Shown piece by piece: positions 7,699-54,018 of a stretch of DNA of 63,136 nt. Under the pieces are notes generated by a model. The model was given only the letters and a program-made list of their open reading frames with translations. It had not been told where the DNA came from and searched no databases. Source of the stretch: an uncultured Pseudomonadales bacterium (GTDB lineage: Bacteria; Patescibacteriota; Microgenomatia; UBA1400; CG1-02-47-37). The number at the start of each line of letters is the position of its first letter. Within the stretch, counting starts at the first letter, position 1. The stretch spans positions 1-63,136 of the forward strand of contig CAZVYS010000003.1 in NCBI GenBank assembly GCA_964630755.1. Direction: 5' to 3'. The position numbers and the translations under genes were made by a program.

Positions 7699-9911
7699 TT
7701 GGAAAACCCGCAAGCCCTACAAGTCATGCATCCTTCACCCATCTCCATCTCTTCACCACACTCAGGGCAAGTATTCTTCAGCGGTTTAACTTTCACCTTG
7801 CTTTGAATAACTTGTTTTGATTTATTTTTCTTTTTAGTTGTTTCTAAAACCTGCCCTTCCCTTGACCCAGATCGATAAATCGTCACCCCCTTACACTTAC
7901 TTTCCCAAGCTAACATATAAGTTTTTTCCACCTCCACCATTGACGCATCATTAGCAAAATTAATCGTTTTACTCACTGCATTCTCAGTGTGCCTTTGAAT
8001 AGCCGCCTGCATCTTAATATGCCCTTCTGGACTAACATCAAAAGCGGTTTTAAAAACTTTTTTAATTGAACTAGGCAAATACTCAATTTCTTGACAACTA
8101 CCTGATTTAGCCACCCGTAAAAATACCTCACTTTTCTGCTCTTCGCTTATTTTTAAACCCTCTATTGCCTTTTTAAAATACGGATTAACATAACTAAGCC
8201 CACCCTCTTCAACCACGTTTTTTACATATGATAAAGCAAAATTTGGTTCAATCCCACTTGAACAATCTGCCACCATACTAATGGTGCCGGTTGGAGCTAT
8301 TGTCGTTACTGCTAAATTTCTTCTAGTCTCGCCAGACTTCTCAAATAAACTCCCTTTTATATTCTTAAAAACTCCTTTTTCCTTGCCCAATCTCTCTGAT
8401 TCATTTATAGCTACCTTGTTCACAAACTTCATAGTTTTTTTAGCAACTTTAAGTCCTTCATCTGTGTCATACCCCACTCCCAATTGATACAGCATATCAG
8501 CCAAGCCCATTACCCCTAAACCAATCCTTCTATTAGCCTTAGCCATTTTCTTAATCTCTTTGATTGGATACAAACTCACATCTACTCCATTGTCCAAGAA
8601 CCTCACCGCTACACGAGTAACTACTTCCAATCTTTTCCAGTTTACGGTTCCCACCGAATCTTTACGCGCAAAGCGAACCATTCGAGCCAAATTTATTGAT
8701 CCTAAATTACAAACATCAAATGGGTGAAGTGGCTGTTCTCCGCAAGGATTAGTAGCCTCAAGCCTGCCCAAAGTCTCAATTACTGGGTTATTTTTATTAA
8801 TCGTATCCAAAAACACCATTCCCGGATCCCCTGTTCTCCAAGCCAAACTAACTATTTGATTAAATAAATTCCTAGCCTTTATCGTTTGAACCACTTCTCT
8901 CGTTCTAGGATTCCTGAGTTTAAAATTCTTGTTTCCTTTCACTGCTCTCATAAACTCATCTGTTACTCCCACCGAAATATTAAAATTGGCTATCTCCCCT
9001 TCTTCAGTCTTGCAAGTAATAAACTCCAAAATATCCGGATGATCAATATTTAATATCCCCATGTTTGCTCCCATTCTATAGCCCCCTTGCATCACCTGAG
9101 CTGTAGCTGCATCAAACACCTTCATAAAACTAACCGGTCCGGTGGCAAATCCTCCACTAGACTTAACATAGTCTCCTTTTGGCCGAAGCTTTGAAAAATT
9201 AAAGCCCGTTCCTCCTCCGGCCTGCTGAACCAAAGCCAGCCACTTTACCGCGTTAAAAATCTCCTCCATGCCGTCCTCAACCGGCAACACAAAGCAATTA
9301 GCCAATGTCGGTCTATTTGTTCCTGCTGATCTTAAATATCCTCCTGCTGGCACAAATTCTAATTTAGAAATCACCTCATAAAACTTTTCTTCCCATTTTG
9401 CTTGATTCTTTTTCCCCTTCTCTTTTAAAGCTATGTACTTTGACACTCTTCTAAATAGATCATTTGGCGTCTCTGTTGCTTTGCCATACTCGTCGTGTCT
9501 TAAATATCGATTCTCAAGCACCTTCAGTTGATTAATCGACAAGCCTAAATCATCTTCTACCCCCAAAGCTTGCTTGGCCTCTCTCACCTTCTGATGCTTT
9601 TCTCGGTAAATTATATACGCCTTGGCTGGATTAAAATGACCAGCAGCCATCAATACTTGCTCTACTACGTCTTGAACCTGCTCAACACTCGGAAACTCAC
9701 CATTCACGCCTTTCTTTAAAATATTAACCACTATCTTAGTTAATCTTTCAGCTTCCTTTTTCCTTCTACTCTCCTCTACTATCTCTCCTGTGGCTTCAAA
9801 AGCCTTCACAATCGCCCCAATCACCTTAGCTTCCTCAAAAGCCACTACTTGGCCATTTCGTTTTCTTATTTTACTTAAATCTGTCATAAATAACTTATCA
9901 ATTACGCCCAA
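7686..9911 (-). CDS. nrdJ: class II (adenosylcobalamin-dependent) ribonucleotide reductase with N-terminal ATP-cone
   Basis: 741 aa with an ATP-cone-like N-terminus (RKRNGQVVAFEEAKV), NCFVLPV, thiyl-radical motif [17 protein letters not shown], and a C-terminal CxxC...CxxC zinc ribbon. Confidence 0.92.
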   Translation of the reverse strand: MGVIDKLFMTDLSKIRKRNGQVVAFEEAKVIGAIVKAFEATGEIVEESRRKKEAERLTKIVVNILKKGVNGEFPSVEQVQDVVEQVLMAAGHFNPAKAYIIYREKHQKVREAKQALGVEDDLGLSINQLKVLENRYLRHDEYGKATETPNDLFRRVSKYIALKEKGKKNQAKWEEKFYEVISKLEFVPAGGYLRSAGTNRPTLANCFVLPVEDGMEEIFNAVKWLALVQQAGGGTGFNFSKLRPKGDYVKSSGGFATGPVSFMKVFDAATAQVMQGGYRMGANMGILNIDHPDILEFITCKTEEGEIANFNISVGVTDEFMRAVKGNKNFKLRNPRTREVVQTIKARNLFNQIVSLAWRTGDPGMVFLDTINKNNPVIETLGRLEATNPCGEQPLHPFDVCNLGSINLARMVRFARKDSVGTVNWKRLEVVTRVAVRFLDNGVDVSLYPIKEIKKMAKANRRIGLGVMGLADMLYQLGVGYDTDEGLKVAKKTMKFVNKVAINESERLGKEKGVFKNIKGSLFEKSGETRRNLAVTTIAPTGTISMVADCSSGIEPNFALSYVKNVVEEGGLSYVNPYFKKAIEGLKISEEQKSEVFLRVAKSGSCQEIEYLPSSIKKVFKTAFDVSPEGHIKMQAAIQRHTENAVSKTINFANDASMVEVEKTYMLAWESKCKGVTIYRSGSREGQVLETTKKKNKSKQVIQSKVKVKPLKNTCPECGEEMEMGEGCMTCRACGFSKCSI

Positions 9912-9935
9912 TGCAGACAGAAGTGCAGCGTTTTG

Positions 9936-11852
9936 TCATACACTACACTTGCTCCACCCGCATTCCATGCAAATAGCGCAACCCTCCTTTATTTCTAAAC
10001 TGCCCCCGCAATCCATACACATATCCTTATTTACTCTCAACACTTGATCTTCTTTAGATCCATCTCTGTAAATCGTTATCCCTTTACAACCTTGTTTCCA
10101 GGCTTGCAGATAAGCTTTTTTCACCTCATCAACACTCGCTTTCTTAGCAAAATTAATTGTTTTACTCACACTATTATCAAAGTTCTTCTGCCAAGCAGCT
10201 TGAATCTTTACATGATATTCCCAATCCACTTCATGAGTGGTAACAAATACTCGCCTAAATTTTACTGATATTTCTTTAATTTTCCCCATAGATCCCGTAC
10301 TAGCCAACTGACCCAATATTTCCTGTCTTCTTTTTTTATCCTTAACCTGACTCCTTAAAAACTCTTCAAACACTGGGTCAACTATTACCAACTCTCTGGT
10401 CGGCCGATTATCTTTATCATCCTCAAAAAATGTTCTTCTCAAAGTCACCAACGAAAACACCGGCTCTATTCCACTACTGCAATCTGCAAACAAACTAATT
10501 GTTCCTGTTGGCGCTATCATCGTGGTTGCACAATTCCTTCGTCTCTTTCCTCCAGCATAAATACTCACATCATAATTTGGAAAACTACCTCTTTCTTCTC
10601 CTAATTTCTCGGTTTCTCTATCAGCTTCTTTTCTAATAAAATGACTCAATTTCTCGGCTAACTTAACCGCTGCCTGACTGTTATATGCTATTTCTAGTTT
10701 ATAAAGCAAATGGGCAAACCCCATCACTCCTAGCCCAATTCTTCTATTACCCTCCTTAACCATCTTTTCATTTTTCTCCAAAGGATAACTATTCGCCTCA
10801 ATCATATTATCCAAAAACCTTACCCCCAAAGAAATTGACTTCTTAAGTTCCTTATAGTCCACTTCATACCGACCATTGGCCAATTTCTTTACATGATTAG
10901 AAAGCACTATGCTAGTCAAGTTGCAGTTCTCATACGGCAACATGGCTATTTCCCCGCAGGGATTAGTTGTCTCAATCCTTCCTAAGCTTGGCGTTGGGTT
11001 ATCCTTATCCATTGCATCAATAAAAGCCATCCCCGGATCTCCGCTTAAATGGGCTTGCTTGCAAATCTTAAAAAACAACTTATCCGCCCTTATTTTCTTC
11101 ACTACCTCATTAGTTCTAGGATTAACTAAAGCCCACATCTTTTTAGCCTCTACCGCCTTCATAAACTTATCAGTCACCCCCACCGACACATTAAAGTTTT
11201 TTAAATTTCCATCTTCAGCCTTCATCTCAATAAACTCTTCAATATCAGGATGTGTAACATTCAAAATCGCAATATTAGCTCCCTGTCTTTTTGCTCCTTG
11301 TAAAATTTTAGATAAAGCAGCACTAAACGCTTTAATAAAATCAACCGGGCCCGAAGCCGCTCCAATCACATTCTTAACCTTATCCCCATGAGGCCTAATC
11401 TTGGAAAAATTAAAACCAGTTCCTCCATTGTTTTTATGAACCACCGCAGCCTCACCTAATGTTTTAAAAATCGACTGAATACTATCTTCAATCGGCAACA
11501 CAAAACACGCCGCCATCTGTCCTGTTCCCCCTGGATTTCCAGCTTCAAACATAGCCTTTCCACTACAAACAAACTTTTTACTCACCATTCGCTCATAGAA
11601 CAACTCCGCAGTCTCTCTAACTTTACTATCTATAGCCGCAAGGGATGAATACCCCTTGCCCTTTAAACTCTTTGCAAACTTTACCCGGCGAATGCCGGGC
11701 CACAACACTTCAGGTTTAGCCATGTGTTGAGCCACTCGCCACAACATCTCCCCCACGCTCTCTACTAACCGACCCTTTTGATTAGCCATCAAGTATCTCT
11801 TTTGAGTTATCTCTAAGGCAGTTTTGGATTGCTTTGGTTCTATTATCTTCAT
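9936..11852 (-). CDS. nrdJ: class II ribonucleotide reductase paralogue (no ATP-cone), with internal repeat insertion
   Basis: 638 aa with ACFVLPI, TNPCGEIAM, CNLTSIVL and C-terminal CMDCGG...CAICMECG. Repeat copy B encodes the segment WPGIRRVKFAKSLKGKGYSS. Confidence 0.92.
   Translation of the reverse strand: MKIIEPKQSKTALEITQKRYLMANQKGRLVESVGEMLWRVAQHMAKPEVLWPGIRRVKFAKSLKGKGYSSLAAIDSKVRETAELFYERMVSKKFVCSGKAMFEAGNPGGTGQMAACFVLPIEDSIQSIFKTLGEAAVVHKNNGGTGFNFSKIRPHGDKVKNVIGAASGPVDFIKAFSAALSKILQGAKRQGANIAILNVTHPDIEEFIEMKAEDGNLKNFNVSVGVTDKFMKAVEAKKMWALVNPRTNEVVKKIRADKLFFKICKQAHLSGDPGMAFIDAMDKDNPTPSLGRIETTNPCGEIAMLPYENCNLTSIVLSNHVKKLANGRYEVDYKELKKSISLGVRFLDNMIEANSYPLEKNEKMVKEGNRRIGLGVMGFAHLLYKLEIAYNSQAAVKLAEKLSHFIRKEADRETEKLGEERGSFPNYDVSIYAGGKRRRNCATTMIAPTGTISLFADCSSGIEPVFSLVTLRRTFFEDDKDNRPTRELVIVDPVFEEFLRSQVKDKKRRQEILGQLASTGSMGKIKEISVKFRRVFVTTHEVDWEYHVKIQAAWQKNFDNSVSKTINFAKKASVDEVKKAYLQAWKQGCKGITIYRDGSKEDQVLRVNKDMCMDCGGSLEIKEGCAICMECGWSKCSV
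11627..11700 (+). repeat. GAAT-loop double-hairpin repeat, copy B (inside nrdJ paralogue)
   Basis: tatctatagccg-CAAGGGat gaat acCCCTTG-ccctttaaactctttgcaaacttta-CCCGGC gaat GCCGGG. Confidence 0.85.
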
Positions 11853-13750
11853 GACACACTACACCTTGAATAGCCACACGACAAACAAGTCGCACAGCCT
11901 TCTTTAAAACTTAATTCTCCCCCACACTCTGGACATAGCTCTTCTTGACTATGACCATTCCCAACCCATTTTCTTTGATTATCAACAATCGGATCACTCC
12001 CACTTTGACCTACTCCTGCATTCAAGACCTGCCTCGCCTTACTACCATCCCGATAAACCGTAATCCCTTTACACCCTGTTTGATAAGCCAACTCATAAGC
12101 TTCCTTAACATCGTCAGGCGACGCTGATCTAGACATATTAATCGTTTTTGAAACCGCTGCATCAATGTGCTTTTGCCAAGCTGCCTGCATCTTAATATGT
12201 GTTCTAAAATCTATCTCATGACTCACTTTAAACAACTCCTTAACATCTTTTGGCACGTTTACTATCTCGCTCACTCCTCCAGTCTCACTTACCTCCTTCA
12301 TTAACTCTTTTGAATAAAACTTTCTCTCTTTGGCCACTTTCAAAAACAAATCATTTGCTTCAAGCAACTCAGTATTATCCACATCCAAAATATTCTTTCT
12401 TATATACGACAAGGCAAACAAAGGCTCAATTCCACTACTACAATTGGCAATAATACTAATAGTTCCAGTTGGCGCCACTGTATTAACAGTACTATTCCGC
12501 ATCCCTTTAAAGCCTTGCTTCTCCCAATCACTACCTTTAAAGCCAGGAAACGAGCCTCTTTCTTTAGCTAGCTTTTGTGACTCACTAATAGCCGTGTCAT
12601 GAATAAACTTACTAATTCTCTCCCCCATTCTCAAACCTTGATTTGAATCATAAGCTATCTTTAGCTTTACCAGCATATCTGCAAACCCCATTACTCCTAA
12701 ACCAATCTTTCTAGTCTTTTTAGTCTGTTTATCTATCTCTGGCAATGGATACTTACAAATATCTATCACATTATCCAAAAACCGCACAGCTACTTGAACC
12801 AAATTCTCTATTTTCCTCCAGTTCACCTCCATCACCATTCCTCTACCTCTTTTTTTTCTCTTAACACACTTAGATAAATTAATGCTACCTAAATTACAAC
12901 TTTCATAAGGGAGTAACGGCTGCTCTCCGCAAGGATTAGTCGTTTCTATTCTTCCTAAATGCTTAATCGGACTAGCTTCATTCATCTTGTCAATAAAAAC
13001 CATCCCCGGATCTGCTGTCTTCCAAGCTTGAAAAGTAATCATATCAAGCACTCTAGAAGCCGAAATCTTTTTAACTACTTTAGTTCCAGTTTGCTCCGAC
13101 TCTCCATTGGGAATTCTCAACTCATACTCTTTCCCATTTAAAGCCGCCTTCATAAACTCATCTGTCACTCCCACTGAAATATTAAAATTTCTTACCTCTT
13201 CTTCAACCCCTTTTGCAAAAACAAAATCCATAATATCAGGGTGATGAACATCCATCACCGCCATTAAGGCTACTCTCCGACTAGAACCCTCGTTAATCAC
13301 TTCAGCTGCTTCGTTATAAAGCTTTAAAAAAGAAATTGGGCCAGAGGTAATTCCACCAGTTGATCGAATTCTTGATCCTCTAGGTCGCAAGTTAGACAAA
13401 GGAATGCCTACCCCACCGCCAGTCCTAGCAATCGTGGCCATCTCTTCCATCGAATTAAAAATACTCTCCAACGAATCAACTAAGGGCAGCACAAAACACG
13501 CCGATAATTGATTAAACTTAGTTCCTGCATGCATTAAAGTTGGCGAGTTTGGTAAAAACTCCAACTTACTCATCACCTTGTAAAACTTTTTCTCCCACTT
13601 GCTTCTATTCTCTTTCTTTTCAATCTTTGATATCGCTTTAGCCACCCTCCTAAACATCTGATCAGGCTTTTCAACCACTCTTCCTTCTTTATCTTTTTTT
13701 AGATAATCTCGCTTGGTCAAAACTGTTAAGGCATTATCTGACAACTTCAT
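11849..13750 (-). CDS. nrdJ: class II ribonucleotide reductase paralogue (no ATP-cone)
   Basis: 633 aa with [24 protein letters not shown] and C-terminal CPECGG...CATCLSCG. It overlaps both neighbouring genes by 4 nt. Confidence 0.92.
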
Positions 13751-14193
13751 TTAATCTCCTTAACTAACTTGGTAAAATCTTTAATTTTATCAAAATCCAA
13801 ATAAACACTGGCAAACCGAACATAAGCCACCTTATCAAGCTTCTTTAGCCGTTTTAAAATCGCATTCCCAACTAACTTACTACTAACTTCACCATTCTTT
13901 TTCCTCATCATCTCTTGCTCAACCTGATCTACTATTTTCTCTATTTTATTAATACTCACCGGCCTCTTCTCACAAGCCCTCACCACTCCTTTTCTCAATT
14001 TTTCTCGGTCAAAGCTCTCTCTCTTATCATCCTTTTTTACTACTTGAAGCTGAGGCCCCTCTATTCTTTCATAAGTCGTAAATCTTTTGGTGCATTTATT
14101 ACACTCCCTTCTTCTCCTGGTAACTGTCTCGTCCTCGCTATCACGAGACTCTAATACTGATGATTCGTTATTATCGCAAAATGGACATTTCAT
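13747..14193 (-). CDS. nrdR: transcriptional repressor NrdR
   Basis: MKCPFCDNNESSVLESR...CNKCTKRFTTYERIE zinc ribbon followed by an ATP-cone. Confidence 0.95.
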   Translation of the reverse strand: MKCPFCDNNESSVLESRDSEDETVTRRRRECNKCTKRFTTYERIEGPQLQVVKKDDKRESFDREKLRKGVVRACEKRPVSINKIEKIVDQVEQEMMRKKNGEVSSKLVGNAILKRLKKLDKVAYVRFASVYLDFDKIKDFTKLVKEIK

Positions 14194-16494: not shown

Positions 16495-16665
16495 CAATAC
16501 CCTTTATCTCCTCCTGCTCGGGAGAGTCCGACGATATATCAGACTTATCATTTAAAGCTCAGTCTTCTGGCTTGTCCGAAGTTACATCAGACTTACAGTT
16601 GCGGCACAGCTTCGGCATTCCTGCTTCGACCTTAGGCGGGTCACCGAATTCCCTGAATCTTTAAT
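16471..16665 (-). promoter_or_regulatory. cobalamin (B12) riboswitch
   Basis: Minus strand: AGGGAATTCGGTGA...CCGAAGCTGTGCCGCAACTGTAAG...ACAAGCCAGAAGACTGAGC. This matches the conserved AGGGAA, GGTGA, GCxGxxCCGCAACTGTAA and B12-box AGCCAGgAGAC elements. Confidence 0.75.
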
Positions 16666-16676
16666 TTAATTGTCAA

Positions 16677-17294
16677 TTATAATTCTGTTTTACTTATCAC
16701 TAATATTTGCTCTAAAACTTGCCTTTGCTCTTCTCCTACTTTTTCATTAATAATCATTATCACTTCCTGATGTTTCCTTGCAGCCTTAGAAAGCTTTTCT
16801 CTAAATTCTGTTTTTGACTCATCAAGTTCAGAAGATAACATCATTGCTTGCTCTAAATATTTTTCCGCCTTTGTTAAGGTTGTTACTCCCAAACTTACCT
16901 TTCCACCTTCAACTAAAGCCCAACCTGCCCCCAAACGCTTATCAGCATATAAAAGCAGTTTTTCTGCCTTTGATTCTGTTTTAGTTGTTAACCACAACTG
17001 CACTTTATCTCTAACCATCTTTAACCAATACATCGGATGGTCTGGTAAAATCCCTGGATACGGTAAATAATAATCAACTGACTCTTGAGAAACTTCCATT
17101 AATGGAGCCTTAGTAATCACCATGCTATTACTTTCAGTTTCTTCTTCTATCACTACCTCTTCCTCCACTTCATGTACTTCATGTTCATGAGCTACTGCTA
17201 GGCTTGTTGCTGACACCCTTAACACTCCTACTCCAAACAGCAACCCCAACACTACTATATATACAGGCATCTTTATCTCATCATGCTTTCTCAT
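16677..17294 (-). CDS. membrane-anchored or secreted hypothetical protein (DUF5667-like)
   Basis: 205 aa with an N-terminal hydrophobic segment and the motif YYLPYPGILPDHPMYWLKMVRDKV followed by helical repeats. Confidence 0.55.
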   Translation of the reverse strand: MRKHDEIKMPVYIVVLGLLFGVGVLRVSATSLAVAHEHEVHEVEEEVVIEEETESNSMVITKAPLMEVSQESVDYYLPYPGILPDHPMYWLKMVRDKVQLWLTTKTESKAEKLLLYADKRLGAGWALVEGGKVSLGVTTLTKAEKYLEQAMMLSSELDESKTEFREKLSKAARKHQEVIMIINEKVGEEQRQVLEQILVISKTEL

Positions 17295-17950: not shown

Positions 17951-20278
17951 ATGCCTGAATCCAAGCAAAGTCTTAAAACTTCTATCAATAACTTGAAGGC
18001 AACAACAAAGCTAAAAATCTTTAAACTAACAAAAATTCTTAAGACTTCTATCCATAGCTTAAGGGTGAATACCCTTAAAACAATTAAAAACCTTGCAAAC
18101 TTTAGGGGACGAATATCCCCTCGTCAATTTGCTTTTATCATTATTCTTCTAGTTGGTTTAATCATCTTCATGTTCACCATTTTAAAAGACCTCCCTTCTC
18201 CATCCAGGCTTTCATCTGATGAATTTCCCGTCTCTACTAAAATTCTTGATCGTAATGGTCAAATTCTTTACGAAATTTATGCTGATCAAAACAGAACTCC
18301 AATTAAAATCAAAGATCTGCCAGACTATGTATTAAAAGCCACCATTTCTATTGAAGACAAAAACTTTTACAAACATCATGGCTTTGATCTGCAAGGAATC
18401 TCTCGGGCTTTTTTAAATACTCTATTTAAACAAAATCTCCAAGGCGGCTCCACCATCACCCAACAACTAGTCAAAACCACTCTTTTATCACCGGAAAGAA
18501 CCATCAAGAGAAAGCTCAGAGAAGCTATTTTGGCCTTAGCTACCGAGCTTCGTTACTCTAAAGACGAAATTATTCAGATGTATCTTAACCACGTTCCTTA
18601 TGGTGGCACTGCCTATGGCATCGAGCAAGCCAGCTTAACCTATTTTAATAAATCAGCTAAGGACTTAAAACTAGAAGAAGCCGCTCTTTTAGCTGGCCTT
18701 CCCCAGGCGCCTACCCGGTACTCCCCTTTTGGTTCTAATCCCGACGCTGCTAAAAATCGTCAAGCCAATGTTTTAAAACGCATGTTCGAAGATGACTACA
18801 TTGACTCTGATCAACTCCAATCCGCCTTAGACACCAAACTTGAATACGCTCCTCAATCTCAAAACATCCTCGCTCCCCACTTCTCTCTTTTTATCAAAGA
18901 TCTTTTAGTTGAAAAATATTCTCAGCCCGTCGTAGAAAAAGGTGGTTTAATCGTCACTACCTCTCTTGATCTAGACATTCAAAAGCAAGCCGAAATCATT
19001 ATCGCCACCGAAAGCGCCAAACTAGAATCAGCTAACGTCAGTAACGCAGCCGCCCTAGTTACCAAACCAAGAACTGGAGAAATCCTCGCCATGGTTGGCT
19101 CCCGTGACTACTTTAACGCTGAAATCGATGGTAATGTTAATATTACTACTCGACTTCGTCAACCCGGTTCTTCTATCAAGCCCATCAACTACGCTGTTGG
19201 TTTAATCAAAGGCCATACTCCAGCCACTATGTTTCTTGACGTTCCCTCTTGCTTTAATGCTCCAGGTCAACCCTCTTCATATTGCCCCAAAAACTACGAC
19301 AATACCTTTCACGGCCCAACCCATATGCGTTTTGCTCTTGGCAACTCCTACAACATCCCCGCCGTCAAAATGCTTGCCAGTAATTCAGTTGAGGCCATGG
19401 TCGCCACTGCCTCAGCCATGGGAATTACATCTTATCAAGATCCAAAAAACTATGGCCTATCCCTTACCCTTGGTGGTGGTGAAGTTCGCATGATCGACAT
19501 GGCAGTTGCTTTTGGAGTTTTCAGCAATCAAGGCTTAAAAGTCGACCTTACTCCTATTCTTAGCGTTAAAGACTATCATGGCAACGTCTTAGAAAGCATT
19601 AATCTTGAAACCGAAATACCAGCCGGCGAAAAAGCCATTTCCCCAGAAGTAGCCTACCTTATCTCCCACATGTTGCTCGATAACAATGCCCGAGTCGGCG
19701 CTTTTGGTTCAAGCTCTGAGCTAGTCATCCGTGACCACACTGTTTCCGCTAAAACCGGCACCACCGATGACCTTCGAGATAACTGGACGATTGGCTTTAC
19801 CCCTTCGTACTTAGTCTCAACTTGGGTCGGCAACAACGACAACACCCCCATGCACCCCTACTTAGTCTCTGGTGTTTCTGGCGCCGCTCCCATCTGGCAC
19901 GACATCATGGAATATGTTCTTAAAGATGAACCTGACGAATGGCCCAAAAAACCAGACACTATTATTGGCCTTCAAGTCTGTAACCTAACTGGCCTTAGAC
20001 CCAATCCCGAATCCCCTTGCGAAACTAGATACGAATACTTTATCAAAGGCCAAGAACCAAACATGGAACCAATTCTTAAACGTGACATCTGGATCGACAA
20101 ATCCACCAAACGCCCACCCGTTCAAGGCAAAACCGACGACCTTGAGTTACAAGAACATATTGTTGTCTCAGACCCCGTCCAAAAAGACTATTGTGTTGAT
20201 TGTGAAAAAGAAATTGATGAGGAAGGTAAAATCAAAGAAGCTCCTTACACCATTAACATCTACCCGCCGGAAGAATAA
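17951..20278 (+). CDS. class A penicillin-binding protein (transglycosylase/transpeptidase), PBP1A-like
   Basis: GT51 motifs EDKNFYKHHG and GGSTITQQLVK, plus transpeptidase motifs SSIK, SYN and KTGTT. TGcTACAAT-N6-ATG precedes 17951. Confidence 0.9.
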   Translation: MPESKQSLKTSINNLKATTKLKIFKLTKILKTSIHSLRVNTLKTIKNLANFRGRISPRQFAFIIILLVGLIIFMFTILKDLPSPSRLSSDEFPVSTKILDRNGQILYEIYADQNRTPIKIKDLPDYVLKATISIEDKNFYKHHGFDLQGISRAFLNTLFKQNLQGGSTITQQLVKTTLLSPERTIKRKLREAILALATELRYSKDEIIQMYLNHVPYGGTAYGIEQASLTYFNKSAKDLKLEEAALLAGLPQAPTRYSPFGSNPDAAKNRQANVLKRMFEDDYIDSDQLQSALDTKLEYAPQSQNILAPHFSLFIKDLLVEKYSQPVVEKGGLIVTTSLDLDIQKQAEIIIATESAKLESANVSNAAALVTKPRTGEILAMVGSRDYFNAEIDGNVNITTRLRQPGSSIKPINYAVGLIKGHTPATMFLDVPSCFNAPGQPSSYCPKNYDNTFHGPTHMRFALGNSYNIPAVKMLASNSVEAMVATASAMGITSYQDPKNYGLSLTLGGGEVRMIDMAVAFGVFSNQGLKVDLTPILSVKDYHGNVLESINLETEIPAGEKAISPEVAYLISHMLLDNNARVGAFGSSSELVIRDHTVSAKTGTTDDLRDNWTIGFTPSYLVSTWVGNNDNTPMHPYLVSGVSGAAPIWHDIMEYVLKDEPDEWPKKPDTIIGLQVCNLTGLRPNPESPCETRYEYFIKGQEPNMEPILKRDIWIDKSTKRPPVQGKTDDLELQEHIVVSDPVQKDYCVDCEKEIDEEGKIKEAPYTINIYPPEE
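18049..18122 (+). repeat. GAAT-loop double-hairpin repeat, copy C (PBP N-terminal tail)
   Basis: tatccatagc-TTAAGGGT gaat ACCCTTAA-aacaattaaaaaccttgcaaacttt-AGGGGA cgaata TCCCCT. Confidence 0.85.
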
Positions 20279-20283
20279 AACTC

Positions 20284-20356
20284 TAATAATTTCTGAATGG
20301 CGAATGCCATTCAAACTTCTGAAACCTTTGCAAGCTTTAGGGAGCGAATGCTCCCC
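20284..20356 (+). repeat. GAAT-loop double-hairpin repeat, copy D (intergenic)
   Basis: TGAATGGC gaat GCCATTCA-aacttctgaaacctttgcaagcttta-GGGAGC gaat GCTCCC. Confidence 0.9.
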
Positions 20357-20389: not shown

Positions 20390-22942
20390 ATGGTTAAAAG
20401 TAGACAAAATAGTCTATTATCCAACCCTTTAGCTTGGGTTGGTTTTGTATTGGAAACAATTGGTCGATCTACCTATAAATCACTCTTCTTCTTAATTAAA
20501 TTAACTTTCAAAGTTATCTTATCTACTATTAATTTCTTGAGGATGAATATCCTCAAATCTCTTAAGTCCTTTAACCGAATTTATCAAGGTTTACCCGGAG
20601 AATTTCGGGCGAATGCCGGAGTTCAATTAATTAAACTCTTGTCAGAAGTTAAAAACATCTTTAACAACGCTTTTAAACAAGCCTCTGATCAATTATCTGT
20701 TAAGCAACTCAAACTCAAATACCCTAAAGTCCGAAAACTTTTACCAGAAGTTAAATGGCGAATGCCATTTATCCATAAATTCTTTAACCGAATTCACCCT
20801 GCGACTGCAGGGCAAAAATTAGCTCTCAGTTTTTTCTTTATTTCTATCAGTCTCTTTTACTGGTTTATCATAAAAGATCTCCCTAAACCGACTGATCTTA
20901 CCAATCGCTTACCCACTCTTTCAACTAAAATCTACGACCGAAACCAAAAACTTCTCTTTACCTTTTACAAAGATCAAAACCGCACTCTTATTTCCCTAGA
21001 CGACATTCCCGAGCATTTTAAACAAGCCACTCTAGCTATCGAAGACCAAGACTTTTACCGCCACAATGGTTTCTCATGGCCAGGTATTTTTAGATCCTTA
21101 GAACAAATCGTTTTTAACCAACAACTTCAGGGCGGTTCTACCATCACTCAACAGCTAATTAAAAACGCACTTCTGACTCCCGAACGAACCATGAAACGAA
21201 AGCTCAAGGAGCTTATCTTAAGCATTGAAGTCGAACTTTTATATTCTAAAGATGAAATTCTGGAAATGTACTTTAACGAAGTAGCATACGGCGGTACCGC
21301 TTATGGAGCTGAACAAGCTAGTCAAACCTATTTTGGTAAATCCATCAAAGATGTCACTTTAGCCGAAGCTGCTCTTTTAGCTGGCCTGCCTGCCTCGCCT
21401 ACCACCTACTCCCCTTTTGGCTCTAATCCTCATTTGTCAGCTTATCGTCAACATCAAGTCTTAAACCGAATGGTCAAAGAACAATACATTGCCCCCTTAG
21501 AAGCCGAGTTAGCCAAAGATCAAAAAATTAAACTAGCTCCACAATATACCAATATCAAGGCTCCCCACTTTGTTATGTATGTAAAACAACTACTCGTTGA
21601 CCAATTTGGAGAGGCTTTAGTCGAACAAGGCGGCTTAACTGTCACCACCTCTCTCGATCTTAATCTGCATAATCAAGTTCAACAAATAGTCACTGATGAA
21701 ATTCAAAAAGTAGCCATGTTAAACATTTCTAACGGAGCTGCTTTAGTAACCAATCCTCAAACCGGTGAAATTTTAAGCATGGTTGGCTCTCGAAACTATT
21801 TTGACACTGATAAAGACGGCCAAGTTAATCTCACCACTGCCCTCAGGCAACCTGGCTCTGCTATCAAACCAGTCAACTATTCAGTTGCCCTTGAAAATGG
21901 CTACACAGCCGCCACCGTTATTAATGACTCTCCTATCACTTATGATATCGCCGGTTCAAAACCTTACTCTCCCCGTAACTACGATGGCCGCTTTCATGGC
22001 AACGTCACTCTTCGTTCTGCTTTAGCTAACTCCTACAATATCCCGGCTGTTAAAGTTTTAGCTAGCTACGGCGTTGACAAAATGATCGAACAAGGCCAAA
22101 AACTAGGCATCACCACCTGGAATCAACCCGAACGATATGGTTTATCTCTTACCCTAGGTGGCGCCGAAGTCAAAATGACTGACCTGGCAGTTGTTTTCAG
22201 CACCTTAGCCAATCAAGGCAATAAAATTGATCTTCATCCTATCCTAAAAGTTACTGACGCCAAAGGAAAAACTCTTTTAAACTTTGACTGCAACAAAACC
22301 ATCGCCGAATCCATTCCTCGTTCTATCAATAGCTTAGGGGTGAATACCCCTAAAACTACTAAATCTTTGCAGAATTTACCCGGCGAATGCCGGGCGAGCC
22401 AACCAAATCAAATCCTTAATCCACACACAGCTGCCATCTTAACCAACATTCTTTCCGACCCTCTCGCTCGAACTCCCGCCTTTGGCACTCGATCTTACCT
22501 AAACATTCCAGGGCATGTTGTGGCTGTTAAAACCGGCACCACCAATGACAAACGAGACAACTGGACTATCGGTTACACCACTGATTATCTTGCTGCTGTC
22601 TGGGTTGGCAATAACGACAACACCCCTATGTCTCAAGTTGCTTCTGGCATCACTGGTGCTTCTCCCATCTGGCATAACATCATGAACAAAGTCTTAGAAA
22701 ATCAACAATCACACCAATTCTCTTATCCTACTGACTTACTAAAAGCCGACATCTGCCCCATCACCGGCCAACTATCTTGTGAAGGCTGCGGTGGAAAAAT
22801 TGAATACTTTGTCAAAGGCACCGAGCCCAAACTCCGCTGCAAACCTGAATACATTCAACAACTAAAAGACGACCAAGCTAAAAAAGATCAGGAAGAGGCA
22901 GAAAAAAGAAACCAACTTCTCGAGGGAATTTCTACCAACTAA
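20390..22942 (+). CDS. class A penicillin-binding protein, second tandem paralogue, carrying repeat insertions
   Basis: EDQDFYRHNG, GGSTITQQLIK, SAIK, SYN and KTGTT. A long N-terminal tail holds repeat copies E and F, and copy G lies inside the transpeptidase region. An alternative start at the ATG inside copy F cannot be excluded. Confidence 0.9.
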   Translation: MVKSRQNSLLSNPLAWVGFVLETIGRSTYKSLFFLIKLTFKVILSTINFLRMNILKSLKSFNRIYQGLPGEFRANAGVQLIKLLSEVKNIFNNAFKQASDQLSVKQLKLKYPKVRKLLPEVKWRMPFIHKFFNRIHPATAGQKLALSFFFISISLFYWFIIKDLPKPTDLTNRLPTLSTKIYDRNQKLLFTFYKDQNRTLISLDDIPEHFKQATLAIEDQDFYRHNGFSWPGIFRSLEQIVFNQQLQGGSTITQQLIKNALLTPERTMKRKLKELILSIEVELLYSKDEILEMYFNEVAYGGTAYGAEQASQTYFGKSIKDVTLAEAALLAGLPASPTTYSPFGSNPHLSAYRQHQVLNRMVKEQYIAPLEAELAKDQKIKLAPQYTNIKAPHFVMYVKQLLVDQFGEALVEQGGLTVTTSLDLNLHNQVQQIVTDEIQKVAMLNISNGAALVTNPQTGEILSMVGSRNYFDTDKDGQVNLTTALRQPGSAIKPVNYSVALENGYTAATVINDSPITYDIAGSKPYSPRNYDGRFHGNVTLRSALANSYNIPAVKVLASYGVDKMIEQGQKLGITTWNQPERYGLSLTLGGAEVKMTDLAVVFSTLANQGNKIDLHPILKVTDAKGKTLLNFDCNKTIAESIPRSINSLGVNTPKTTKSLQNLPGECRASQPNQILNPHTAAILTNILSDPLARTPAFGTRSYLNIPGHVVAVKTGTTNDKRDNWTIGYTTDYLAAVWVGNNDNTPMSQVASGITGASPIWHNIMNKVLENQQSHQFSYPTDLLKADICPITGQLSCEGCGGKIEYFVKGTEPKLRCKPEYIQQLKDDQAKKDQEEAEKRNQLLEGISTN
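20524..20621 (+). repeat. GAAT-loop double-hairpin repeat, copy E (expanded second hairpin)
   Basis: tactattaatttc-TTGAGGAT gaat ATCCTCAA-spacer-CCCGGA gaat TTCGGG overlapping TCGGGC gaat GCCGGA. Confidence 0.8.
20750..20813 (+). repeat. GAAT-loop double-hairpin repeat, copy F (degenerate second loop)
   Basis: AAATGGC gaat GCCATTT-atccataaattctttaaccgaattca-CCCTGC gact GCAGGG. Confidence 0.75.
22324..22395 (+). repeat. GAAT-loop double-hairpin repeat, copy G (inside PBP transpeptidase region)
   Basis: tatcaatagc-TTAGGGGT gaat ACCCCTAA-aactactaaatctttgcagaattta-CCCGGC gaat GCCGGG. Confidence 0.9.
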
Positions 22943-23016
22943 CTATTAATTTCTTGAGGGTGAATACTCTCAAATCAACTAAATCCTTTGCAGTCTTTAG
23001 GGGGCGGATGCCCCCC
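22942..23016 (+). repeat. GAAT-loop double-hairpin repeat, copy H
   Basis: actattaatttc-TTGAGGGT gaat ACTCTCAA-atcaactaaatcctttgcagtcttta-GGGGGC ggat GCCCCC. Confidence 0.85.
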
Positions 23017-23992
23017 ACCACTCCCAGACAACTCGACTAATTTTTGGCAACACCTCCTGCGCCTCACCATCGTTAACCCCTGAACTCATCATGCAGATTA
23101 CATAAGGCTCATCTGCATAAACTATCCCACAATCATTCACAATCCCTGATTCTGATCCAAACTTGTGAACTACTTTTACTCCACTTGGCACCCCCGCTGT
23201 AATCCGATCTTCATTAACTGTCATAGTTAAGCTTTCAAATAACTTTTCCTTGCTTTTTTTACTAATAAACTCATTATTATATAAATCTTTAAACATCTCT
23301 CCTGCCTCTTTAGTTGTCATTTCTTCTGGTAATTTTTCATTAACCCACTTACTCATTAACTGCGCAGCCATATTATCACTTTGATTAGCCATCAGCTCTG
23401 CTATTTCTTGATAAGTATACTCCGTACCTATTGGTTGATTTTGCATGCTTCCAGTTCCATACTCCCATCGGTCAACTTCTTTTAAAACATATAGCTCCTC
23501 CGAATTAATCTTCCCGCTATCAACTTGCCTATAATACTCCACCAAAACTGGCATCTTAGAAACTGATGCTGCAGAAATTGTTTTATTAGCATTAATCACA
23601 AACCCTTCTTCTGTTACTAAATTCTCCACCCATACTCCATAATCACCACTCAAATCTTTTAACAATTCTTCCACTGCCTCTTCCACGTCTTGTTTTTCTT
23701 TAATCGTTACCTTAAAACCAATCACCTCAGACACATCTTTAGCATCTCCAACTGGCTTTAAAATAGTAATTGTTTCAGGATTATTCCAGTCTTTCCACCA
23801 ATCCCTAACTTCTCTTGGTAAATAAAACATTAGCCCCAAAACTAAGGTAATTAACAATCCTACTCCTGTCTGTTTTCTTGATCCTTCTTCCCCGATCGTT
23901 TTTCTTCTCCTTTTTCTTCTCCGCTTTATTCCCTCTTCCCCCTCCACAAAATCCTTCTCCTGTAACTTCTCTTTATTTTCTTTATTCATCAC
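22997..23992 (-). CDS. class A beta-lactamase-like serine hydrolase, membrane anchored
   Basis: 331 aa with a basic N-terminus plus TM helix and SxxK motif ASVSK in a beta-lactamase-like fold region. The last residues (WWGASAP) are encoded by repeat copy H. Confidence 0.7.
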   Translation of the reverse strand: MMNKENKEKLQEKDFVEGEEGIKRRRKRRRKTIGEEGSRKQTGVGLLITLVLGLMFYLPREVRDWWKDWNNPETITILKPVGDAKDVSEVIGFKVTIKEKQDVEEAVEELLKDLSGDYGVWVENLVTEEGFVINANKTISAASVSKMPVLVEYYRQVDSGKINSEELYVLKEVDRWEYGTGSMQNQPIGTEYTYQEIAELMANQSDNMAAQLMSKWVNEKLPEEMTTKEAGEMFKDLYNNEFISKKSKEKLFESLTMTVNEDRITAGVPSGVKVVHKFGSESGIVNDCGIVYADEPYVICMMSSGVNDGEAQEVLPKISRVVWEWWGASAP

Positions 23993-24005
23993 CTAAATTT
24001 TAACA

Positions 24006-24072
24006 CATTAATCTAGGGGGCGAATGCCCCCTACACCTTTAAAATTACTTATTTACCCGGCGAATGCCGGGC
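24006..24072 (+). repeat. GAAT-loop double-hairpin repeat, copy I
   Basis: cattaatc-TAGGGGGC gaat GCCCCCTA-cacctttaaaattacttattta-CCCGGC gaat GCCGGG. Confidence 0.85.
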
Positions 24073-24339
24073 TAACAACTTATCAATTGTCTGCTTGTAT
24101 CTTAACTTCATCTTTTTTCTCCCATCACTACTCTTCAAATATTTTTCTCTAGCTCCAGCCTCTTTTTTATACCAATAAAACTCATATCCAACTAACTTCA
24201 ATGGCCTCCTACTTCTCGTTGATATCACTTTCCCTTCAATGTGATTTTTAAACCTCATCTTCACATCTTCAGTTATTCCCACATAAAACTGCTTATCTCT
24301 TAACGAGATTAACACATACACAAAATACATTCTATTCAT
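24049..24339 (-). CDS. small GIY-YIG nuclease family protein (UPF0213/SLX1-like URI domain)
   Basis: MYFVYVLISLRDKQFYVGITEDVKMRFKNHIEGK is a classic GIY-(X)-YVG...R..H motif. 96 aa. Confidence 0.85.
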   Translation of the reverse strand: MNRMYFVYVLISLRDKQFYVGITEDVKMRFKNHIEGKVISTRSRRPLKLVGYEFYWYKKEAGAREKYLKSSDGRKKMKLRYKQTIDKLLARHSPGK

Positions 24340-25307
24340 TTACCTGGCGAATGCCGGGCTAACCATTTATTAGCTTCTGGTTCAAACAACAAGCCTTTTT
24401 TAGGCCCAAAATGTTTTACTACCGATGCCCCATTAACCATTCCTAACTTCAAGGCCTTATCAATAGAATAGCCTTTAATCAATCCAGCCACCAATCCACA
24501 ACCAAAAGCGTCTCCGGCCCCAGTCTCCTCTACTGTTTTAACCTTCATTCCTGGTAACTCAACCACTTTATTGTCTTTTATCACCGTTGCTCCCTTTCTC
24601 CCTTCAGTCATTGCCACAGTCTTTACTCCTAACTTTTTTAAATCCAAAACTATCGCTTCCTTATTTTTAAACTCATGTCTAGTTAATCTTCCAGCCTCTT
24701 GTCGATTTAAAAGCAGCGCCTCTACTTGAGGCAAATAAGCTCTCAACTTATCTTCCGCTTGAATTTCTTTACTGCCTGGATTCAAGGCCACTCTAATGCC
24801 TTTTTTTTGAGCCTCCCTCACAATCTTTGAAAGCAAGTTAAAATCTCCCCCCAAACTAGAAACATAAAACCAATCTGGCTCTAGCTTATCCCAAGCCACC
24901 TTAGATAAAGATAGCTTGCTACTAGCTCTTCGATAAACCAAGGCTGATCTTCCTCCTTCTTTACTTACTAACATAGTTGAATAACTAGTCGGTTCATCTA
25001 CTTGCTGAATATACAAAGGACTCACTCCTTCTTTTTTCAGTTCTTTTCTCACAAACAAACCCCAATCGTCTTTACCTACACAGCAAACCGCCGCAGTCTG
25101 AACCAGAAGTCTCTCAAAGCCCACCGCCGTATTAGTTCCTCCCCCTCCAGTAGTAATCACCTGCTTTTCTATATTAATCTTGCCTCCATACACCTCGCAC
25201 AAAGCCACTCCTGTTGGGCTCGAAGAAGTATTTATCATCTTAAAATCCGAAGATTGTAAATACACATCTACAAAAGCACTACCAAAAGTCACTACATCAA
25301 ACTTCAT
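24336..25307 (-). CDS. PfkB-family carbohydrate/nucleoside kinase
   Basis: N-terminal GG motif (TTGGGGTNTAVGF) and C-terminal TGAGDAFGCGLVAG anion-hole motif. Confidence 0.85.
   Translation of the reverse strand: MKFDVVTFGSAFVDVYLQSSDFKMINTSSSPTGVALCEVYGGKINIEKQVITTGGGGTNTAVGFERLLVQTAAVCCVGKDDWGLFVRKELKKEGVSPLYIQQVDEPTSYSTMLVSKEGGRSALVYRRASSKLSLSKVAWDKLEPDWFYVSSLGGDFNLLSKIVREAQKKGIRVALNPGSKEIQAEDKLRAYLPQVEALLLNRQEAGRLTRHEFKNKEAIVLDLKKLGVKTVAMTEGRKGATVIKDNKVVELPGMKVKTVEETGAGDAFGCGLVAGLIKGYSIDKALKLGMVNGASVVKHFGPKKGLLFEPEANKWLARHSPGK
24338..24363 (+). repeat. solo second-hairpin copy J
   Basis: atttaCCTGGC gaat GCCGGGctaac, 25/26 identical to 24051-24076. Confidence 0.85.
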
Positions 25308-25941: not shown

Positions 25942-25970
25942 AATCCCATTATATAAAGTCTTAAGCCTTC

Positions 25971-26040
25971 TACCAATAGCCGAATGATGAATATCATTCG
26001 CCTAAATCACTTAACTAAGTTTACCCTGCGAATGCAGGGC
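25971..26040 (+). repeat. GAAT-loop double-hairpin repeat, copy K
   Basis: taccaatagc-CGAATGAT gaat ATCATTCG-cctaaatcacttaactaagttta-CCCTGC gaat GCAGGG. Confidence 0.9.
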
Positions 26041-34227: not shown

Positions 34228-35448
34228 TTATTTAAACACCTCCCCAACCTTCTTAATCCCCTCCACTAACCCATCTACATCATTCTCATTGTTATACACA
34301 TAAAAACTAGCTCTAGTTGTTGCCGTCAATCCCAGTCGCTCATGCAAAGGCATAGTGCAATGATGCCCCGATCTTACCGCCACTCCCCCACTATTTAACA
34401 CTTCAGCCACATCATGCGCATGCACTCCATCAACCGCGAATGTTACCACTCCCCCTCTAATCTCTATATCTTTAGGGCCAATCAACTTCACTCCCTTAAT
34501 CTTTTCTATCTTAAGTAGTGCATATTCTGTCAGTTTTTTCTCATGTTCTCGAATATTTTTCAATCCAAGTTTATTATGATACTCAACCGCCTCAGCCAAC
34601 CCAATAGCTCCACCCACATTTGGCGTACCTGCTTCCCATTTTTCTTGATCCTTAGCCCATTTAGAACTATCTTTATTAACCTCACTAATCATTCCCCCAC
34701 GAGTCATAAACACCCCCCCTTCATCCTGAACTAATTTTCTTATATATATTCCAGAAAAACCCAGTGGCGCCATCATCTTATGTCCAGCAATCACCAAAAA
34801 GTCACACTTGAGCTTTTTTACATCTACTCCTATATGTTGAACGCTCTGAGCCGCATCAATTAACACTCTTGCCCCCATTTTTTTCGCCATCTTGATAATC
34901 TTTTCCACCGGATTAATCACTCCAGTTGTATTAGATACATGAACTAAAGCCACCAACTTAGTTTTCTTGCTTAACTTCTTCTTAAGATCTTTCATATCCA
35001 ATAACCCCTTATCTGTCACCTCAACTACTTGTAGCTTCACTCCTTTTCTTTTAGCCACCTGCTGCCAAGGCACTAGATTAGCATGATGTTCCATCTCGGT
35101 GGTTAAGATCTCATCCCCTGGCTTTAGATTTCTAAAAGCCCAGGCCCAAGCTATTAGATTAATTCCCTCAGTCGCGTTACTTACAAACACCAGCTCATCA
35201 CTTCTTGCTCCAATAAATTCAGCCACAATCTTTCTTGATTCTTCATACATCAAACTAGCTTCTTCGCTTAAAGCATGAATCCCCCGATGAACATTAGCAT
35301 TATGCTTTTTATAATACTCACTCACCGCTTCAATTACTTGAGCCGGCTTTTGGCTACTAGCCGCATTATCTAAATAAACCAACCGTTTACCATTCACTTT
35401 TCTTATCAGTATTGGAAAGTCTTTTTTAATCTGATTAACATTAAGCAT
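34228..35448 (-). CDS. sufS: cysteine desulfurase SufS
   Basis: YLDNAASSQKP, PLP-Lys context AGHKMMAP, and catalytic RSGHHCTMPL. Confidence 0.93.
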   Translation of the reverse strand: MLNVNQIKKDFPILIRKVNGKRLVYLDNAASSQKPAQVIEAVSEYYKKHNANVHRGIHALSEEASLMYEESRKIVAEFIGARSDELVFVSNATEGINLIAWAWAFRNLKPGDEILTTEMEHHANLVPWQQVAKRKGVKLQVVEVTDKGLLDMKDLKKKLSKKTKLVALVHVSNTTGVINPVEKIIKMAKKMGARVLIDAAQSVQHIGVDVKKLKCDFLVIAGHKMMAPLGFSGIYIRKLVQDEGGVFMTRGGMISEVNKDSSKWAKDQEKWEAGTPNVGGAIGLAEAVEYHNKLGLKNIREHEKKLTEYALLKIEKIKGVKLIGPKDIEIRGGVVTFAVDGVHAHDVAEVLNSGGVAVRSGHHCTMPLHERLGLTATTRASFYVYNNENDVDGLVEGIKKVGEVFK

Positions 35449-36025
35449 ATATCTGCTCCCTTACTTGTTTTTTAATTTTACCATTCCCTATCTTATTTAA
35501 AACTTCATCCAAGAAACCTTTCTCAATCACTGATTCCGCTTCACTTTTAGATATCCCCCGACTCATTAAATAAAACAACTGCTCTTCATCAATCTTTGAC
35601 ACCGTCGCCGCATGTGAAGCTCTCACATCATCAGCCTCAATTTCTAAGCTCGGTTCCGCCACTGCCTGGACCCTATCACCCATTAGCAACACCTTCTCAG
35701 TTAAAAAGTCAGTTACTTGATGACAATCTTTATCAATCCTAATCATTCCTTTTACCTCAGCCTTAGCTTCACCATTTAACACTCCATGAAGCTCTGTTTC
35801 TGCGTGTGTATTGCGCGCCCTATGATTGGTCTTGGTCGAAATCACATAATCTCCTTTTACTGCTCTCATTGCTACCAAAAGGCAGGCCTTCGCCCCTTCA
35901 ACCATCAAGTCAATCCTTACCTTATACTCTCCAGGTCTTAAAACCACCATTACCACCACTACCTTATTATTTTTGTTAACTTTAATTGTTTCTCTTACTG
36001 GTTTATTAATCAGGATATATTTCAT
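35441..36025 (-). CDS. sufD: short SufD-like Fe-S assembly protein
   Basis: 194 aa. The C-terminal [28 protein letters not shown] mirrors the SufB/SufD signature. Confidence 0.75.
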
Positions 36026-37443: not shown

Positions 37444-37547
37444 ACAAATTTTCAGCGCACAACGCCTCATCTGATTCAGTCAGATAGCTGTGAACACTAC
37501 TAAAATTTCTGTATGGCGAGTCAAGCAAAAGCTGACACCATTTATAT

Positions 37548-49948: not shown

Positions 49949-49958
49949 CCTCTTATTC

Positions 49959-53986: not shown

Positions 53987-54018
53987 AATCTGTATATTAT
54001 ACAAAGTCTTTAATCCCA

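Follow-up and report, generated by a model that had tools for sequence, protein, structure and literature searches.

A contig of 63,136 nucleotides (CAZVYS010000003.1; hereafter the window) carries a family of short two-hairpin DNA repeats, several copies of which are embedded in frame in conserved enzymes. Judged by the names of the closest homologues, the window most likely comes from Candidatus Beckwithbacteria, a lineage of the candidate phyla radiation (CPR/Patescibacteria). We propose that the repeat is probably the dispersed hairpin module of a selfish cassette built around a small GIY-YIG nuclease gene, acting at the nucleotide level, with the nuclease as its putative mobiliser. The original prediction, made for 72 bases (22324–22395) within a penicillin-binding protein (PBP) gene, described a nucleotide-level element tolerated as a peptide insertion, similar to the Rickettsia palindromic elements (RPEs). 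This view is supported by paired changes in the hairpin stems, by the use of four reading frames, by the location of the inserts in loops and by the intragenic position of about half of the copies. In addition to what had been predicted, we observed that all copies are oriented relative to a single DNA strand, that a GIY-YIG gene is embedded among them, and that several neighbouring genes obtain their C-terminus and stop codon, or a promoter-like sequence, from copies of the repeat.

A two-hairpin repeat inside and between genes

Copies of the repeat were located by a direct-repeat search combined with a scan for hairpins with a GAAT loop, and a covariance model trained on 19 copies was then run on the window. 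The model detected 12 full copies, with E values of 1e-12 to 1e-18, and one half copy; the 72 bases of the original prediction belong to one of them, copy G. On the + strand, the repeat begins with CTAYCAATAGC, followed by hairpin 1 (8 bp, GAAT loop), a spacer of about 25 nt and hairpin 2 (6 bp, GAAT loop). The spacer is of two types, TTTGCAAnnTTTA or TTTAACCGAnTTTA. The short form spans about 75–81 nt and the long form about 100 nt, with an extra 5′ extension of about 25 nt in copies K and M that is partly present in copies C and F. A 20-mer from hairpin 2 has four matches in the window at three mismatches or fewer, where none is expected. An Rfam scan at gathering thresholds matched only one tRNA and one cobalamin riboswitch, and no family for the repeat.

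Stem statistics were calculated for 44 distinct copies from the window and related contigs (the latter bear locus names such as L001, L003, L013 and L014). Standard pairs are formed by 99.2% of the 616 stem cells, compared to 71% in shuffles and 37–51% with slid partners. Changes on both sides occur in 13 of the 14 stem pairs, and 170 cells are changed on both sides versus about 50 in shuffles. Copies found at the same site in different species (in Maf, PBP2 and NrdJ) retain their hairpins through paired changes that alter the encoded peptide. At the top of the Maf stem, for example, ggt/acc in the window corresponds to gat/atc in L001 and to ggc/gcc in L003, with G to D and H to R changes in the peptide. 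The hosts read the repeat in four of the six frames, two sense and two antisense. Since hairpins are kept through amino-acid-altering paired changes and since four frames are used, these comparisons support conservation of the repeat at the level of nucleotides and structure, not of the peptide.

Six of the 13 window copies are intragenic (one each in Maf, one NrdJ and PBP1, and three in PBP2) and flanked on either side by conserved protein sequence. When all loci are counted, long open reading frames (ORFs) contain about 21 of 36 distinct copies; peptidyl-tRNA hydrolase and thioredoxin reductase are among the further hosts, as is a DUF5667 protein that has two copies. The original prediction had placed copy G in the second of two PBPs and not in its tandem paralogue, copy B in one paralogue of a class II ribonucleotide reductase (RNR) and copy A, as about 25 residues, between the LSMLKA helix of Maf and the strand that follows, with the same DNA read in different frames. 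Each of these statements was borne out.

The gene of the Maf nucleotide pyrophosphatase (7000–7713, − strand, probable start 7698; Pfam PF02545, E 2.8e-43, 148 bits) hosts copy A (~7458–7538, + strand; covariance match 7466–7540, 77 bits), which is read antisense as ...NPRHSPGELSKKSSTNGIHHSTIGKS... and adds about 27 amino acids between the LSMLKA helix and the IIGSD strand. Solved structures of Maf can be aligned on either side of the insert, with residues 57–86 skipped. The insert is missing from at least eight close Maf orthologues and is common to two related species; compared to an empty orthologue in L015, it represents an excess of 81 nt. In the AlphaFold model, the Maf core is confidently predicted (mean predicted local distance difference test (pLDDT) score = 89.6), and the insert forms a loop (residues 58–90, pLDDT 46–67) between a helix (44–57) and a strand (91–102).

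Copy B (11622–11699, + strand; covariance match 11623–11701, 78 bits) is read antisense, in a different frame from copy A, within the middle one of three tandem NrdJ paralogues, a class II (B12-dependent) RNR (9936–11852, − strand; 606 bits with TIGR02504 NrdJ_Z vs a cut-off of 400). All three window reductases pass this NCBIfam class II model. The 26 extra residues, PGIRRVKFAKSLKGKGYSSLAAIDSK, are absent from the other two paralogues and from the orthologue in L001, which reads ...PEVIW-SDDVE-VKRM... at the equivalent point. The three NrdJ genes occupy 7686–13750, with NrdR (13747–14193) and a B12 adenosyltransferase gene nearby, and a cobalamin riboswitch (16540–16677) precedes a 700-aa ORF without a Pfam match. 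In related species, differing NrdJ paralogues contain inteins with LAGLIDADG endonucleases (L001 5164–7839; L003 6345–10013).

The class A PBP gene PBP2 (20390–22942, + strand; Pfam Transgly and Transpeptidase) carries copies E, F and G in frame, and its product passes TIGR02074 (PBP_1a_fam) with 517 bits vs a cut-off of 509. Copy G (22320–22396, + strand; covariance match 88 bits, E ~1e-18) falls into a Cys...Cys loop of the transpeptidase domain and encodes ...IPRSINSLGVNTPKTTKSLQNLPGECRASQPNQ... / SINSLGVNTPKTTKSLQNLPGECRAS; at this point of the alignment, the tandem paralogue PBP1 reads ...ESINLETEIPAGEKAISPEVAYL and lacks the insert. Across 21 PBP2 orthologues the site is a hypervariable loop, usually with two cysteines. 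One of these orthologues (P0149, L013) also has the copy G insert, and most others are without it. A TGC codon in hairpin 2 of copy G (GECRA; 22379–22394) aligns with the second cysteine of the loop in most PBP2 orthologues, and the insert may therefore have replaced that cysteine. Because the AlphaFold model of PBP2 is only moderate (mean pLDDT 67; residues 636–670 form a coil with pLDDT 31–41), the assignment of copy G to a loop rests mainly on the alignment.

Copies E (20523–20609, + strand; 69 bits) and F (20738–20812, + strand; 77 bits) are in the N-terminal tail of PBP2. Copy E has an 11-nt insertion in the spacer and is followed by a nested partial hairpin; a copy at the position equivalent to F is present in L013. 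Both are flanked by the N-terminal motif LExIGRxTY, conserved in all PBP2 orthologues, and by the membrane helix, which places them inside the coding region. The N-terminal tail of PBP1 contains copy C (18045–18120, + strand, sense; 77 bits), read as TSIHSLRVNTLKTIKNLANFRGRISPR, and, 5′ of it, a degenerate second copy (~17979–18031) with only a weak covariance match (E 0.89). A degenerate repeat peptide, SLKTSINNLKATTK, is encoded at 17951–18031, upstream of copy C.

Alignments with close orthologues and paralogues, which lack the segments, support the view that the inserts are lineage-specific. Likewise, the alignments and the Maf and PBP2 models support their placement in variable, low-confidence loops or tails. 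The host proteins pass the curated family models for Maf, class II RNR and class A PBP despite the inserts. All internal copies keep the frame of the host and are free of stops in the frame used, whereas in the intergenic copies K, M and I each of the six frames is interrupted by stops. As excision or bypass would not be expected to maintain such a constraint, these statistics favour translation of the intragenic copies as ordinary peptide.

Other copies overlap gene ends. The last 5–9 residues and the stop codon of four genes derive from the reverse complement of hairpin 2 in copies H, I, J and K: a convergent β-lactamase-like ORF (22997–23992; segment 22997–23015), the GIY-YIG gene (24049–24075), pfkB (24336–24362) and GAPDH (26011–26040). 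Copy H (22940–23015, + strand; 75 bits) begins at the PBP2 stop codon. Copy I (24000–24071, + strand; 63 bits) overlaps the 3′ end of the GIY-YIG ORF, and copy J (24333–24370, + strand) is an orphan hairpin 2 (24343–24358) with a weak covariance match at 24286–24360. Both the GIY-YIG protein and the product of the upstream pfkB end in ...LARHSPGK-stop; ...ALHSQGKLS-stop is another example of a C-terminus formed by hairpin 2. The remaining copies are D (20280–20355, + strand; 80 bits), which is intergenic and begins 2 nt past the PBP1 stop codon, L (49955–50031, + strand, intergenic; 77 bits), and the long-form copies K (25948–26039, + strand; 84 bits) and M (53996–54086, + strand; 75 bits).

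The long-form copies carry an outward-facing sigma-70-like sequence, TTGGTA-17-TATAAT, which precedes the start codons of rpe, rmlC and a GIY-YIG gene by 5–9 nt (25948–25976 and 53996–54024, both on the − strand, and L050 ~100–157, respectively). At the far end of copy K it lies 6 nt before the rpe ATG (25941). In copy M, 9 nt separate the TATAAT on the − strand from the probable ATG (53986) of rmlC, the dTDP-sugar epimerase gene, whose Pfam match begins at residue 39 of a longer ORF. Promoters at these positions would yield leaderless transcripts, although the match is statistically weak, with about 0.8 expected per region. The possibility that the hairpins are transcription terminators was rejected: neither is followed by a run of T on either strand, and a scan returned no terminator-like sites.

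Strand polarity and the linked GIY-YIG gene

All 13 window copies lie on the + strand, and their host genes are found on both strands. In 43 of 43 distinct copies, from the window and every related locus, the strand with the GAAT loops is the C-rich strand. The orientation thus tracks the DNA strand itself rather than the direction of transcription, which argues against a function at the RNA level; an RNA motif was rejected on these grounds and because G-T pairs are rare. The GC skew of the window (1–63136) is extreme and uniform, from −0.30 to −0.48 in 4-kb windows, regardless of gene strand. This agrees with the C excess on one strand of the whole chromosome reported for complete genomes of Beckwithbacteria, Collierbacteria and relatives, from which unidirectional replication has been proposed (PMC7143001).

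The GIY-YIG ORF (24049–24339, − strand) lies between copy I and the orphan hairpin J and encodes 96 aa that comprise the catalytic domain only (Pfam PF01541, E 4.7e-14, 52.9 bits vs a cut-off of 22.6). It is bracketed by a 38-nt direct repeat that contains hairpin 2 (24333–24370 vs 24046–24083, 87% identity). The ORF is the sole GIY-YIG gene and the sole selfish-type nuclease gene of the window. Its family profile is closest to UPF0213 (structures 1zg2 and 1ywl) and to the structure-specific nuclease SLX1. No transposase family, Y1 (HUH) included, was matched when every substantial ORF of the window was scanned against Pfam.

The association recurs elsewhere. We scanned metagenomes with an alignment of eight GIY-YIG sequences and kept 80 loci, 59 of them distinct. 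In two Beckwithbacteria metagenome-assembled genomes (MAGs), two tandem elements stop exactly at the ATG of the GIY-YIG gene. The full element adjoins the ATG of GIY-YIG relatives in about five neighbourhoods, with proteins 55–84% identical to that of the window; the cassette with the gene occurs in differing contexts, and some relatives also contain hairpin 2 in their 3′ end. A count of GC-rich perfect hairpins with 4-nt loops over the 59 distinct loci gave 68 in 10.9 kb of upstream sequence (170-nt windows) vs 40 in 157 kb elsewhere, a density about 25 times higher upstream, and at least one such upstream hairpin is present in 36 of 56 GIY-YIG loci. The background hairpins found elsewhere in tRNA-associated GIY-YIG lineages are mostly unrelated in sequence. 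In L058 (~510–575), three tandem hairpin 2 units (GCCCTGTATTCACAGGGTAAA) stand upstream of a full element and a GIY-YIG gene, which suggests that single hairpin units can be amplified.

More distant relatives are associated with tRNA genes. A tRNA gene directly follows the GIY-YIG ORF in 31 of the 59 distinct loci (e.g., L012 9990–10491, L054–L057, L060–L063 and others): tRNA-Ser in 26, then tRNAs for Tyr, Arg, Gln and Trp. At least 18 GIY-YIG loci have an upstream duplicate of the 5′ part of the tRNA, and this copy is typically interrupted in the T-loop, in the order ...GGTTCG / 16-nt hairpin CG / 16-nt hairpin CG / AATCC. The CG on each side of these hairpins resembles a 2-nt duplication; it is seen only around single hairpins in the tRNA-associated relatives and fits the 2-nt staggered cuts reported as typical of GIY-YIG enzymes. 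Within these lineages, hairpins accompany the cassette and are not dispersed, and so they appear to belong to the cassette rather than to its target. Overall, such loci look like a tRNA-targeting selfish cassette. The window hairpins share the core of the tRNA-associated ones, GGC ATTC GCC on the gene-sense strand, and the 8-bp hairpin 1 often amounts to CG + 6 bp + CG.

The two-hairpin repeat itself has a restricted distribution. A scan of a genome collection with the hairpin 2 pattern yielded 23 loci, with full copies restricted to the loci of two Beckwithbacteria-type MAGs. Weak partial matches came from one further Beckwithbacteria MAG and two bins labelled Pseudomonadales; the remaining loci are consistent with about 17 chance matches by a hand estimate. 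Among the genomes scanned, full copies are therefore confined to a narrow Beckwithbacteria clade.

Two further features of the window were noted. A tRNA-Ile gene (2156–2230, − strand) has the anticodon TAT (UAU); in most bacteria, AUA is decoded by a modified CAU anticodon instead. Directly 3′ of a full SufB/D gene there is a short SufBD-core ORF of 194 aa (35441–37470 for the pair), with a 77-nt repeat common to both; the short ORF is a paralogue or a partial duplication.

Proposed spread of the hairpin module

Taken together, the physical linkage, the recurrence of the cassette and the hairpin density upstream of GIY-YIG genes are most readily described by the following model. A nuclease of the SLX1/UPF0213 type would recognise DNA hairpins and nick or cut there, and repair or copying would then spread or homogenise the hairpin module in trans. 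In the Beckwithbacteria lineage the module would have multiplied as solo copies, of which only frame-keeping insertions in tolerant loops would survive, being translated as ordinary peptide. Long-form copies may also drive adjacent genes through their outward promoter-like sequence. Solo copies in essential genes cannot have been left behind by a full cassette, and it is therefore more likely that the short module itself was moved or copied in trans.

A broader proposal, plausible to us but held with clearly less confidence, is that the cassette represents an undescribed kind of prokaryotic mobile element. It would consist of a minimal GIY-YIG nuclease (SLX1/UPF0213-type), without a transposase, that propagates CG-flanked 16-nt hairpins and two-hairpin modules. 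In many CPR lineages the cassette would reside at tRNA-Ser (at TTCGAA of the T-loop in the duplicated copy), and in Beckwithbacteria the module would have escaped, spread on one strand only of a chromosome proposed to replicate in one direction, and remodelled enzymes, the ends of genes and perhaps promoters. We see a fair chance that the whole GIY-YIG–hairpin system constitutes a novel type of mobile element. Literature searches, whose coverage was incomplete so that an earlier description is possible, returned no account of the repeat or of GIY-YIG/hairpin cassettes beside tRNA-Ser.

Several observations weigh against mobilisation by the nuclease. The GIY-YIG ORF has no DNA-binding domain, and its ability to cut hairpins is presumed. 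From the adjacency, it is equally conceivable that the repeats were there first and the GIY-YIG gene homes into them. Cutting of double-stranded DNA by a nuclease does not alone explain the strict strand polarity, and a transposase could lie outside the 63 kb of the genome that were seen. The copies are diverged (mean column identity 59%), and a direct sign of recent transposition is absent; this divergence suggests old insertions, kept intact by selection or conversion. Moreover, the recurring stem variants are few, so that gene conversion between copies or repeated insertion could explain part of the paired-change pattern and mimic compensatory evolution in place.

The insertion sites raise a similar difficulty. 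Among the sites compared in related loci, we found no clean filled/empty pair that defines a target duplication for the two-hairpin module, and the Maf, NrdJ and L013/L014 sites show replacement instead of simple insertion. The Maf site has differing sequences in two genomes that are 99.9% identical. At another site, in the 99.9% identical MAGs of L013 and L014, a repeat copy (L013 18118–18218) stands against a free-standing LAGLIDADG-like ORF of 214 aa with an LYWAEGFK motif (L014 15278–15970); this variable site is intergenic, between a terminator-like hairpin and a tRNA gene. The two-hairpin junctions revealed no common target motif beyond a tendency towards G, or at times TCG, preceding hairpin 2 (reverse complement).

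We consider it unlikely, though deserving of attention, that the repeat is instead a host-selected, strand-specific DNA signal (for replication, priming or chromosome organisation) or a promoter/insulator module, with the GIY-YIG protein being a homing endonuclease that targets an abundant sequence. Such a role would account for the perfect hairpins in old same-site copies of different species, for the completely uniform orientation, for the sigma-70-like sequence at the three ATG codons, and for the four genes that draw their C-terminus and stop codon from a copy. However, a host signal need not sit in the coding regions of enzymes, and the copies are clustered, with nine inside 8 kb, and not evenly spaced. 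Full copies were detected only in a narrow clade, the promoter match is statistically weak, and the hairpins of the tRNA-associated relatives come in together with the cassette, their genomes showing no dispersed copies.

Less probable still is mobilisation of the element as single-stranded DNA by a Y1 tyrosine transposase encoded elsewhere in the genome (IS200/IS605-type, or a RAYT, the transposase associated with repetitive extragenic palindromes (REPs)), with the hairpins as left and right ends and the GIY-YIG gene as a bystander. Elements that insert into the template of the lagging strand typically show strict strand polarity, and both the polarity of the repeat relative to strand asymmetry (43/43) and its two subterminal hairpins in direct orientation without terminal inverted repeats would be as expected. 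Nevertheless, no window ORF matches Y1_Tnp or another transposase family, in every context examined the hairpins are physically attached to a GIY-YIG nuclease gene, and the junctions show no conserved tetranucleotide target beside the hairpins.

GC-rich hairpin elements that are bypassed by the ribosome are known in yeast mitochondria, and the intragenic copies might by analogy be skipped through programmed translational bypassing or removed from the RNA. We regard this as very improbable in light of the frame-keeping and stop-codon pattern described above. In addition, no window gene is split by a copy, Pfam scans of the window ORFs having found no split gene halves around the intergenic copies, and the element is too short for a self-splicing intron or an intein and has no Rfam match. 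Finally, the idea that the segments are ancestral protein parts or chance similarities, for which the variability of the PBP2 loop and N-terminal tail in all orthologues could be cited, is effectively refuted by their absence from close orthologues, by covariance matches at E 1e-12 to 1e-18 and by frame usage, with the same 75-nt DNA and its covarying hairpins recurring in unrelated proteins, in differing frames and in intergenic DNA.

Relation to known elements and significance

The closest parallel to the repeat is offered by the RPEs, about half of which lie in frame in genes, where they are tolerated as extra peptide, and for which no transposase is known (PMC10969869). Like the RPEs, the repeat is short and hairpin-forming, resides in a small genome, has about half of its copies in frame in unrelated housekeeping genes and lacks a known transposase. 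It shares with them the defining trait of palindromic DNA in frame in coding genes and compatible with the host fold, in six window copies and about 21 of 36 overall. We nonetheless set it apart from the RPE family, without direct alignment to an RPE consensus, as the host belongs to the CPR and not to Rickettsiales, and there is no match to a curated RNA or repeat family. Furthermore, it consists of two short hairpins in direct orientation and about 75 nt, in contrast to the one long palindrome of about 100–150 nt in RPEs, and it alone is restricted to a single strand and physically joined to a GIY-YIG gene.

The repeat is not a miniature inverted-repeat transposable element, since it has no terminal inverted repeats; one end, CTAYCAATAGC..., is not an inverted copy of the other, ...GCCGGG. 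It resembles REPs and bacterial interspersed mosaic elements with their RAYT, as well as IS200/IS605 mini elements, in its conserved loop and stem-top, its stem covariation and an associated gene flanked by hairpins, and it resembles the IS200/IS605 group also in strand-biased placement. In contrast to the REP/RAYT system, the associated gene encodes a GIY-YIG nuclease, with no Y1 HUH transposase found among the window ORFs, and, unlike the extragenic REPs, the copies are often inside genes.

To our knowledge, no strand rule or GIY-YIG linkage is established for the hairpin repeats of mitochondria. Organellar repeats of this kind invade intergenic and coding regions of AT-rich, compact genomes. 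The mitochondrial GC clusters, double-hairpin elements and repetitive hairpin-forming elements of fungi and sponges are, like the repeat described here, short GC-rich hairpins found in intergenic and coding DNA (PMC2800124), but they are organellar and unrelated in sequence.

The gene, in turn, is reminiscent of free-standing GIY-YIG homing endonuclease genes such as those of the T4 Seg proteins and the I-TevI family: it encodes the catalytic domain, moves between contexts and has relatives at a conserved site, the tRNA genes. T4 SegB, too, acts in a tRNA gene cluster (PMC2330249). Unlike those genes, the GIY-YIG genes studied here encode only about 85–100 aa without a DNA-binding domain, are nearest to UPF0213/SLX1 and have their own hairpin module with many solo copies.

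In-frame colonisation of essential enzymes by palindromic DNA has so far been known mostly from Rickettsia and without a known mobilising enzyme. The same phenomenon is now found in an unrelated, uncultured phylum with a concrete candidate enzyme physically attached, which makes its mechanism testable. In a lineage for which unidirectional replication has been proposed, the strand rule provides a handle on how replication asymmetry shapes mobile DNA. Because the repeats lengthen or alter annotated proteins, with three inserts in a single PBP and new C-termini and stop codons at gene ends, they will mislead gene callers and the assignment of domain boundaries in CPR genomes.

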